DNA of 43,955 nt from a virus: UHGV virus genome UHGV-0152227; one strand, 5' to 3'. Below, piece after piece: positions 40,051-40,993 of this stretch. The notes beneath the pieces were generated by a model, which did no database searches, had not been told where the DNA came from, and worked only from the letters and a program-made list of their open reading frames with translations. A program made the position numbers and the translations under genes. Positions within the stretch are counted from its first letter, which is position 1; each line of letters opens with the position of its first letter.

Positions 40051-40350
40051 GTGAGAAAGTTAAGCCGACTTGAAAAATATCACATGAACAAGGTTTCAAT
40101 GCGCAGCCCTTCAAAGGTTGTTGCCGTTACTCCTGCGGCGATAGAGATCGAAAAACGCGCGATTGAAAGAGAGAAAAAAGGGCAGTTCCGCATTGCCGCC
40201 CACCTTTGGCTTCAGTGTATGGATGTTGCTTCTGGTGATGTTGAACGTGCAAGGATCGCGGTTCGCAGGGACCAATGTATCACAAAAGGTAACGGCCTTC
40301 GCCGTGGCGACTATAGCGGCATAGGATGTTGTGGGGTGGTTTATGACTAA
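40051..40350 (+). CDS. PerC/Pch-like transcriptional regulator (tentative)
   Basis: Motif AIEREKKGQFRIAAHLWLQCMDVASGDVERARIAVRRDQC resembles the PerC family; start is GTG 40051 or ATG 40084. Confidence 0.45.
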   Translation: MRKLSRLEKYHMNKVSMRSPSKVVAVTPAAIEIEKRAIEREKKGQFRIAAHLWLQCMDVASGDVERARIAVRRDQCITKGNGLRRGDYSGIGCCGVVYD

Positions 40351-40993
40351 GAAATACACACTAATCTATGCAGATCCACCCTGGGCATACCGGGACAAAG
40401 CCACAGATGGTAATCGCGGTGCCGGTTTTAAATATCCGGTTATGAGTGTGCTGGATATCTGCCGCCTTCCTGTGTGGGATTTGGCCGGTGAAAACTGTCT
40501 GTTGGCCATGTGGTGGGTGCCAACACAACCACTCGAAGCACTAAAAGTTGTTGAAGCCTGGGGATTCCGTCTGATGACCATGAAGGGCTTCACGTGGATA
40601 AAATGTGGTAGTCGACAACCAGATAAACTGGTTATGGGGATGGGACACATGACTCGCGCCAACAGTGAAGATTGTCTGTTTGCGGTAAAGGGAAAACTAC
40701 CTCCGCGCATTAATGCAGGTATCGTTCAGTCATTTACCGCACCGCGGCTTGAGCATTCAAGAAAACCAGATGTCGTTCGTGAAAAACTTGTGCAATTGTT
40801 AGGCGATGTTTCTCGCATTGAACTGTTCGCCCGCCAGTCGTCTCATGGCTTCGATGTTTGGGGTAATCAGTGCGAAGACCCGGCAGTGCAACTACACCCA
40901 GGATACGCGTTGGATATTGCCGGATTAACAAATGCATTCAGCAATGCTCCGCTGTCACCAACAGACAACCAGGGGCGGGAACGTGCAGCATGA
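40343..40993 (+). CDS. MT-A70-family DNA N6-adenine methyltransferase (orphan)
   Basis: Catalytic motif DPPW (LIYADPPWAY); no adjacent restriction nuclease. Confidence 0.8.
   Translation: MTKKYTLIYADPPWAYRDKATDGNRGAGFKYPVMSVLDICRLPVWDLAGENCLLAMWWVPTQPLEALKVVEAWGFRLMTMKGFTWIKCGSRQPDKLVMGMGHMTRANSEDCLFAVKGKLPPRINAGIVQSFTAPRLEHSRKPDVVREKLVQLLGDVSRIELFARQSSHGFDVWGNQCEDPAVQLHPGYALDIAGLTNAFSNAPLSPTDNQGRERAA

Follow-up and report, generated by a model that had tools for sequence, protein, structure and literature searches.

Does the PerC-like gene of a temperate phage work together with the adenine methyltransferase gene that it overlaps, or do the two serve separate ends from neighboring places in one operon? 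We considered this question for the UHGV virus genome UHGV-0152227, a stretch of 43,955 nucleotides (nt), called the window below, which represents a phiV10/epsilon15-like temperate podophage or prophage of the genus Uetakevirus. A preliminary description of the locus had taken the pairing as a sign that one operon carries both host-gene regulation and anti-restriction or epigenetic functions. What it observed in the two genes is confirmed here, whereas its interpretation is only partly supported; it also missed the prior annotation of the pair and the recurrence of PerC-type genes directly upstream of other methyltransferase families. We favor, with a probability of roughly 55%, two co-expressed, functionally independent early accessory genes that came to adjoin when intervening genes were lost from a variable stretch of the operon. 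Novelty is confined to one point: several other phage lineages likewise have PerC-type genes directly upstream of methyltransferases, there of unrelated kinds, a gene order for which we found no description in the searchable literature.

The two genes and their junction

As a feature, the gene pair is already known. The phiV10 annotation lists p34 as a PerC-family protein and p33 as an adenine methylase, and of 5426 complete E. coli genomes, 670 (~12%) have the pair under the RefSeq names "PerC family transcriptional regulator" and "MT-A70 family methyltransferase"; prophages of the phiV10 type are frequent among pathogenic E. coli, O157 included. The pair of the window is ~98% identical in DNA to those of phiV10, TL-2011b, HEMP4 and the O157 typing phages 9 and 10, and shares with the phiV10-type pair its order, its 8-nt overlap and its operon (RecE/RecT, AlpA, membrane protein, PerC, methyltransferase). 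Among the 80 nearest IMG/VR contigs, the methyltransferase comes next with the same overlap in 79 and is full length in 76. The pair has been annotated ever since phiV10 was sequenced, and its re-description adds little alone.

The first gene (Table 1) encodes a protein of 99 residues whose PerC-like core, as proposed earlier, passes a hidden Markov model (HMM) search against the Pfam family PerC (PF06069; E = 6e-7, 30.1 bits, cutoff 22.6); the match spans residues 35–80 and only profile positions 5–50 of 90. The protein also matches phrog_868, "transcriptional activator", from end to end (E = 6.5e-62), and the PerC core motif G-x-[WYF]-R-x-A-A-x-x-W-L ... E-R ... R-R-x-x-C is present as GQFRIAAHLWLQCMD...VERARIAVRRDQC. 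Many core positions are invariant across 51 homologues, most others are conserved in at least 90% of them, and they align with distant members of the family. At its GTG start the gene overlaps the stop codon of the one before it, which encodes a 38-residue membrane protein. Because residues 1–11 (MxKLxxLEKYH) are kept in 51 homologues, those of Salmonella, Citrobacter, Enterobacter and Klebsiella among them, this start and the 99-residue form are supported, and the 88-residue annotation of phiV10 (internal ATG, 29015–29281; 11 codons shorter) is probably too short. Ratios of nonsynonymous to synonymous substitution rates (dN/dS), computed against the homologues of SPN1S, Tyrion and PA8, are 0.07–0.13 for the PerC-like gene and 0.06–0.13 for both genes together, indicating purifying selection on the regulator-like gene and on the methyltransferase alike.

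The AlphaFold2 model of the PerC-like protein comprises four helices and a disordered C-terminal tail (mean pLDDT 75, core 85–91). Foldseek returned nothing significant with this model, the best neighbors being MIT/TPR-like bundles at E ~0.2, and a search of solved structures gave no significant match; Pfam reports a weak MIT match. An exhaustive profile search of 1.84 billion proteins recovered 58 representatives only. Three longer matches are among the distant results; one is a TPR protein, one a repeat protein and the third a repetitive open reading frame (ORF) that is apparently spurious. The ANR family (NCBIfam NF033650), whose members are likewise small and helical, scores 23.6 bits across the PerC core, below its 32-bit cutoff, which amounts to a remote resemblance only. 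Similarity of the same sub-threshold kind in 10 of 12 distant PerC members (best E = 5e-7) suggests that the PerC and ANR families of small regulators are remotely related. ANR proteins such as Aar of enteroaggregative E. coli bind AraC-type activators and H-NS (PMC5570504, PMC10148876), and Pch proteins act at H-NS-bound regions (PMC4764244). Since the helical model, the MIT/TPR-like neighbors, the ANR similarity and the site of Pch action all point to a protein–protein mode, we infer that the PerC-like protein would work through contacts with proteins, e.g., H-NS or oligomerizing regulators, and not as a classical DNA-binding activator. Pfam and PHROG identified no gene of the AraC family among the scanned operon genes.

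For the second gene, the mechanically called ORF spans 40331–40993; homologues and the phiV10 annotation start at the ATG at 40343 (MTKKYTLIYADPPW), which gives 216 residues. The product matches MT-A70, a beta-class amino-methyltransferase family, over its full length (PF05063; E = 2.3e-21, 76.9 bits, cutoff 23.9, profile positions 1–172 of 172), as well as phrog_359 (E = 8e-120) and PADLOC MTase_II (E = 1e-77), and the catalytic motif IV DPPW, already noted earlier, lies at residues 11–14 (ADPPW, 10–14). Its nearest solved structures are ciliate MTA1, which writes 6mA in DNA, and METTL3, which writes m6A in RNA; the C-terminal (I/L)E(L/I)FAR segment that comes after DPPW is present as RIELFAR and aligns with YLEIFAR of Tetrahymena MTA1. 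Neither Pfam nor PADLOC detects a restriction endonuclease family among the operon neighbors, so the name "orphan" methyltransferase is justified. M.EcoGIX was considered as a characterized homologue and rejected, being a plasmid-borne, single-strand-specific enzyme.

The two genes overlap by 8 nt, ATGACTAA, or by 20 nt if counted from the GTG of the mechanically called ORF, in agreement with the earlier remark that the PerC-like gene runs into the methyltransferase start. A Shine-Dalgarno-like run, GGGGTGG, lies inside the last PerC-like codons; the codons of the disordered tail carry the ribosome-binding site of the next gene. In SPN1S the PerC gene ends in the identical ATGACTAA junction, with DUF1317 downstream. 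Analogous overlaps of 4–8 nt are present at other PerC-to-methyltransferase loci, and start and stop overlap by 1–8 nt wherever the junction or the annotated coordinates were inspected.

A related observation concerns the tail of the family. The motif YSG[IV]...GGV[LV]x[DG] is encoded by a Shine-Dalgarno sequence plus start overlap (window 40310–40350; loci L090, L099–L107, L114 and L002), the signals being GGAGG or GGGGTGG followed by ATGACTAA, ATGACTGA or ATGAATGA. Part of the apparent "conservation" of the PerC tail may therefore reflect a conserved signal for translational coupling.

Neighbors of the methyltransferase and of PerC-type genes

Viewed from the methyltransferase, the pairing is loose and not special. 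We counted 517 phage records with the enzyme and 36 with the PerC-like subfamily. The former include ~120 phages of the Shiga toxin (Stx) type Stx2, at 83–84% identity, and Stx2a phages carry the methyltransferase without PerC; the latter are all Uetakevirus-like, from E. coli, Salmonella, Enterobacter and Klebsiella, with the gene always at this position. The gene directly upstream of the methyltransferase varies widely: it is PNB-2 in the Stx phage PA8, an unrelated ORF of 62–76 residues in PA28, a 55-residue ORF preceded by a PNB-2 homologue in HK639, DUF4060 in Pocitis76 and a 101-residue ORF in Stean. The Salmonella phage SPN1S has the order PerC, DUF1317, DndB-like DGQHR protein, MT-A70, and the Enterobacter phage Tyrion the order PerC, DUF1317, 75-residue winged helix-turn-helix (wHTH) protein, MT-A70. 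Because these relatives have one or two genes between the pair, the two genes appear to have become direct neighbors secondarily in the E. coli clade, through loss of the intervening genes.

These observations fit a scheme in which the operon is transcribed and both proteins would be made together from translationally coupled genes. The first product would be an all-helical PerC/ANR-like protein acting by protein–protein contacts; the second is an orphan MT-A70 adenine-N6 methyltransferase whose substrate, by analogy with studied relatives, could be GATC-like DNA or rRNA. Each protein would most likely serve the phage independently, its neighbor having been brought up against it by gene loss.

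Two arrangements in these relatives deserve mention in their own right. In SPN1S/SPC32-type Uetakeviruses (L002, 3971–5556), the gene of the 331-residue DndB-like DGQHR protein (PF14072) lies upstream of the MT-A70 gene (77% identical) and overlaps it, and these two may form a module of their own. Long-form PerC proteins, e.g., YfdN (L003, 8388–8882) and a second example (L114, 3252–3698), are fusions of a MarR-like wHTH domain with the PerC core, whereas Tyrion (L241, 1284–1511) has a short PerC gene and a separate gene for its 75-residue wHTH protein, both upstream of the methyltransferase; a split-versus-fused arrangement is possible.

The independent reading meets one objection in what follows PerC-type genes elsewhere. 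We surveyed 232 loci, comprising 80 phiV10-type, 80 YfdN-type and 33 diverse loci from IMG/VR and 39 from species-level genomes; the phiV10-type scan consists of near-identical E. coli loci only. PerC ORFs were clustered at 60% identity, the immediate downstream gene on the same strand was recorded, and representatives were confirmed by Pfam; the screen covered four methyltransferase families. A DNA methyltransferase lies directly downstream in 6 of 27 PerC clusters, which are phylogenetically non-independent, and belongs to three enzyme families (MT-A70, phage Dam and D12 Dam). MT-A70 follows in 77 of the 80 loci of the phiV10-type cluster and phage Dam (PF05869) in 69 of the 80 YfdN-type loci. 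A cluster of 74–96-residue proteins has a methyltransferase downstream in 8 of 10 loci (D12 Dam in three, Dam in three, a PAPS-reductase-Dam fusion in two), and three smaller clusters have MT-A70 or a Dcm-Dam fusion there in 2/4, 2/4 and 2/3 loci; in the MT-A70 case of the second of these (L112), one 58-residue ORF separates the two genes. Within 3.5 kb, 18 of 72 diverse loci have a methyltransferase, always downstream and on the same strand (18/18) and directly adjacent in 13; none was found upstream or on the opposite strand within that distance. Placement directly downstream is thus far commoner than chance predicts, and this excess, together with the constant strand, argues for some functional link.

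Named examples of the same order are yfdN-yfdM of K-12 (prophage CPS-53), orf40-dam of SfV and sb43-sb44 of ST64B. As in the window, a PerC-family gene lies directly upstream of an adenine methyltransferase gene and overlaps it; these PerC proteins, however, are of the long form (wHTH plus core, 160–175 residues), the enzyme is the unrelated phage Dam (PF05869), and the site lies after the replication genes (nin-type region) and not in the early-left operon. In lambdoid-type loci the PerC gene comes after those for replication, either lambda P or HTH_36 together with Phg_2220_C, so the pairing occurs in two operon contexts, early-left in Uetakeviruses and post-replication in lambdoid types. 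YfdM of K-12 had been entertained as an MT-A70 remnant and was rejected, being a fragment of phage Dam (PF05869) without similarity to the enzyme of the window.

A second objection comes from the biochemistry of MT-A70 enzymes, which commonly require a partner; in the Stx-phage homologue this is the protein encoded by the gene upstream (PMC10810198). That homologue, gp5 of PA8 (M.EcoPA8orf6770P), is 83% identical to the window enzyme over residues 1–187, as measured on the PA28 copy, has the same DPPW motif, and is likewise encoded near int in the early-left region, overlapped by a small upstream gene. Alone it reportedly shows weak activity; with PNB-2, which a co-transcribed gene upstream encodes, it forms a 1:1 complex that prefers 16S rRNA in 30S subunits and raises spontaneous prophage induction (PMC10810198). 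PNB-2 (gp6) is a 143-residue wHTH protein (phrog_1680) unrelated to PerC, whereas the upstream gene of the window is PerC-like. No PNB-2 homologue was found in the window by tblastn, and the lack of a PNB-2 or wHTH homologue there leaves the PerC-like protein as the sole tightly coupled partner candidate. Two shortcuts to a closer match were rejected. PNB-2 is not a divergent long-form PerC (hhalign probability 1.6%, wHTH region only; HMM search E = 0.3), and PA28 gp06 is not PNB-2, as the published primer is absent from PA28 and the true PNB-2 is the 143-residue gp6 of PA8.

Both objections lead to the main rival account, a functional couple, in which the PerC-like protein would be a partner of the methyltransferase analogous to PNB-2, be it a specificity or targeting subunit, a stabilizer or an obligatory translational coupler. 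Besides the recurrence with its short overlaps, the two operon contexts, the one-sided placement and the partner requirement of the Stx-phage enzyme, the predicted fold of the PerC-like protein speaks for it, resembling protein–protein interaction modules. We nevertheless hold a couple to be rather unlikely. No methyltransferase neighbors the PerC gene in 21 of 27 clusters, mostly chromosomal and probably borne by phage-inducible chromosomal islands (PICI), and none of the 39 PerC loci of the species-level genomes is adjacent to one. The upstream neighbor of MT-A70 changes from phage to phage, and PNB-2 is not PerC-like. The C-terminal tail of PerC is the same with or without a following methyltransferase, neither protein search returned a PerC-methyltransferase fusion, and the clusters that show the order are not independent of one another. 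D12 Dam enzymes are active as monomers, and swaps of genes of equivalent function at a fixed site beside a conserved flank are common in mosaic phage genomes; both facts weigh on the same side.

A couple could be extended to the whole family, PerC-family proteins in general having originated as methyltransferase-associated phage proteins. Put in full, this speculative and probably incorrect proposal holds that they are partners of phage orphan adenine methyltransferases in origin, perhaps still in function, and are co-translated from the gene directly upstream. A PerC-type partner would then modulate the enzyme in targeting, stability or timing, or work alongside it on nucleoid-bound DNA; the PerC-like protein of the window would play the role of PNB-2 for its methyltransferase; and the "virulence regulators" PerC and Pch would descend from a phage module accessory to methyltransferases.

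Proposed roles in virulence activation, DNA protection and rRNA methylation

The preliminary description saw in the PerC-like protein a lysogenic-conversion activator of host virulence loci, such as the enterocyte effacement locus (LEE), and in the methyltransferase an anti-restriction or epigenetic enzyme that protects DNA. For the regulator this draws on the Pfam match, on the frequency of phiV10-type prophages in pathogenic E. coli including O157, and on the family itself: PerC of enteropathogenic E. coli (EPEC; pEAF), PchA–E of enterohaemorrhagic E. coli prophages, YfdN of K-12 CPS-53 and PICI PerC-like proteins have in common with the window protein a core of ~50 residues, E..G.[WYF]R.AA..WL...D...ER...A.RR..C, and are alike in small size and location on mobile elements. 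The window protein differs from these PF06069 members in its N-terminal helix, its YSGI..GVVYD tail and its own PHROG (868). Only the core is common to YfdN and the Pfam profile, and identity to K-12 YfdN is just 29% over 49 residues.

That family members activate virulence loci holds for part of the family, although the family owes its name to activation of LEE1/ler. EPEC PerC, like group 1 Pch, activates ler (PMC5931665, PMC6265319), and group 1 Pch activate the LEE (PMC6265319, PMC11773190), whereas PchD and PchE have little LEE effect (PMC6265319), and among the PICI PerC-like copies some do not activate the LEE and one represses it (PMC11773190). With relatives that differ so much in their LEE effects, family membership does not predict virulence activation, and the step to host-gene regulation in the window follows the family name only and is not supported as put forward. 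Phages of Salmonella, Enterobacter and Klebsiella moreover have this subfamily as a conserved gene. To our knowledge the LEE is not generally found in these genera, so the primary role of the protein is probably one for the phage. The gene also sits in the early-left operon and is not a moron with its own promoter; in lambda-type prophages the early-left operon is repressed.

For the methyltransferase, the strong PADLOC type II match fits a DNA-protecting role, as does M.EcoGV, the O104:H4 homologue of PA8 gp5, which is mentioned in PMC10810198 as having methylated GATC in vivo when overproduced. An epigenetic or anti-restriction role is thus possible, yet PA8 gp5 with PNB-2 prefers 16S rRNA, and the Stx-phage homologue alone has little DNA activity (PMC10810198). 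As 16S rRNA is the main reported substrate of the closest studied enzyme, which acts on it with a partner, anti-restriction DNA methylation cannot be safely assumed here. Dam+ hosts would also make GATC methylation redundant, and the window shows no notable avoidance of GATC (observed/expected 0.76), a frequency that gives no clue to specificity. Virulence activation combined with DNA protection is therefore, as a whole, unlikely.

The PA8 work could also be carried over more directly, the methyltransferase being mainly a 16S rRNA adenine methyltransferase that tunes prophage induction, with a PerC-like protein unrelated to that activity. The 83% identity over the catalytic domain, the PA8 experiments themselves (PMC10810198) and the presence of RNA m6A writers such as METTL3 among the nearest solved structures are consistent with it; the DNA 6mA writer MTA1, however, is just as much among these structures. 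In PA8 the rRNA preference is conferred by PNB-2, which is absent from the window, and that study never mapped which base is modified (PMC10810198). The last ~27–29 residues of gp5 were suggested to matter for the association with PNB-2 (PMC10810198), and the C-terminal tails of the window enzyme and PA28 gp5 are unrelated, the alignment stopping at residue 187. We therefore regard a function mainly on rRNA as very unlikely, and two independently acting accessory proteins remain the preferred account of the pair.

Operon setting and meaning of the pair

The structural and early regions of the window are 95–97% identical to those of TL-2011b, HEMP4, phiV10 and the O157 typing phages. The pair lies in a chain of recombination and accessory genes syntenic with phiV10 p39-p32 that starts past the repressor gene and a terminator-like hairpin (Table 1), so "early-left operon", the placement given before, is a fair label for it.

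Table 1. Coordinates of the PerC-like gene, the methyltransferase gene and the surrounding features of the window
Feature	Coordinates	Strand	Basis
Repressor gene, upstream of operon	36719-37303		
Terminator-like hairpin, upstream of operon	37324-37343		
Promoter-like site, upstream of operon	37395-37423		
Operon, chain of overlapping or abutting ORFs	37457-41265	+	ORF map, Pfam/PHROG matches, phiV10 synteny
Two small ORFs, first in operon chain	from 37457	+	ORF map
RecE-like PDDEXK (DUF3799)	37908-38729	+	Pfam/PHROG
RecT	38699-39643	+	Pfam/PHROG
AlpA-like	39693-39941	+	Pfam/PHROG
38-residue membrane protein	39938-40054	+	ORF map, Pfam/PHROG
PerC-like gene, 99 residues, GTG start	40051-40350	+	PF06069, phrog_868
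Coupling junction ATGACTAA, with the start codon of the methyltransferase and the stop codon of the PerC-like gene	40343-40350	+	Sequence
MT-A70 methyltransferase, 216 residues, ATG start	40343-40993	+	PF05063, phrog_359, PADLOC MTase_II
91-residue ORF, phrog_9805, ATG overlapping methyltransferase stop (ATGA)	40990-41265	+	ORF map, PHROG

Several features set the window apart from phiV10. RecE-like and RecT are two overlapping ORFs here (37908–39643), where the phiV10 annotation has a single 1761-bp RecE-RecT fusion gene (29722–31482). After the methyltransferase, phiV10 has DUF1382, as Stx phages do, whereas the window has the phrog_9805 ORF, of the HEMP4 type, and an 81-residue ORF without a family match (together 40990–41653; the same in HEMP4); the two occupy the place of DUF1382 in a variable cassette beside int. 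Between the methyltransferase module and int follows a gene for a 239-residue ORF6N antirepressor-like protein (41902–42621), which has no counterpart at that position in phiV10 and is preceded by a near-consensus sigma-70-like site (41656–41685; TTGACA, 18-nt spacer, TATATT; 11 of 12 matches). "PNB-1" of the Stx phage PA8 is likewise an ORF6N protein. A tRNA-Arg gene (anticodon TCT) lies within the phage sequence at 27048–27124.

Taken together, these results bear on how both proteins are named and understood. Enzymes of this kind should not automatically inherit the label "DNA adenine methylase, anti-restriction", as the nearest studied one behaves as a partner-dependent rRNA methyltransferase that controls prophage induction. 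The recurrent PerC-to-methyltransferase order, if it is functional, would give PerC/Pch proteins a molecular role and phage orphan methyltransferases a new class of partner.

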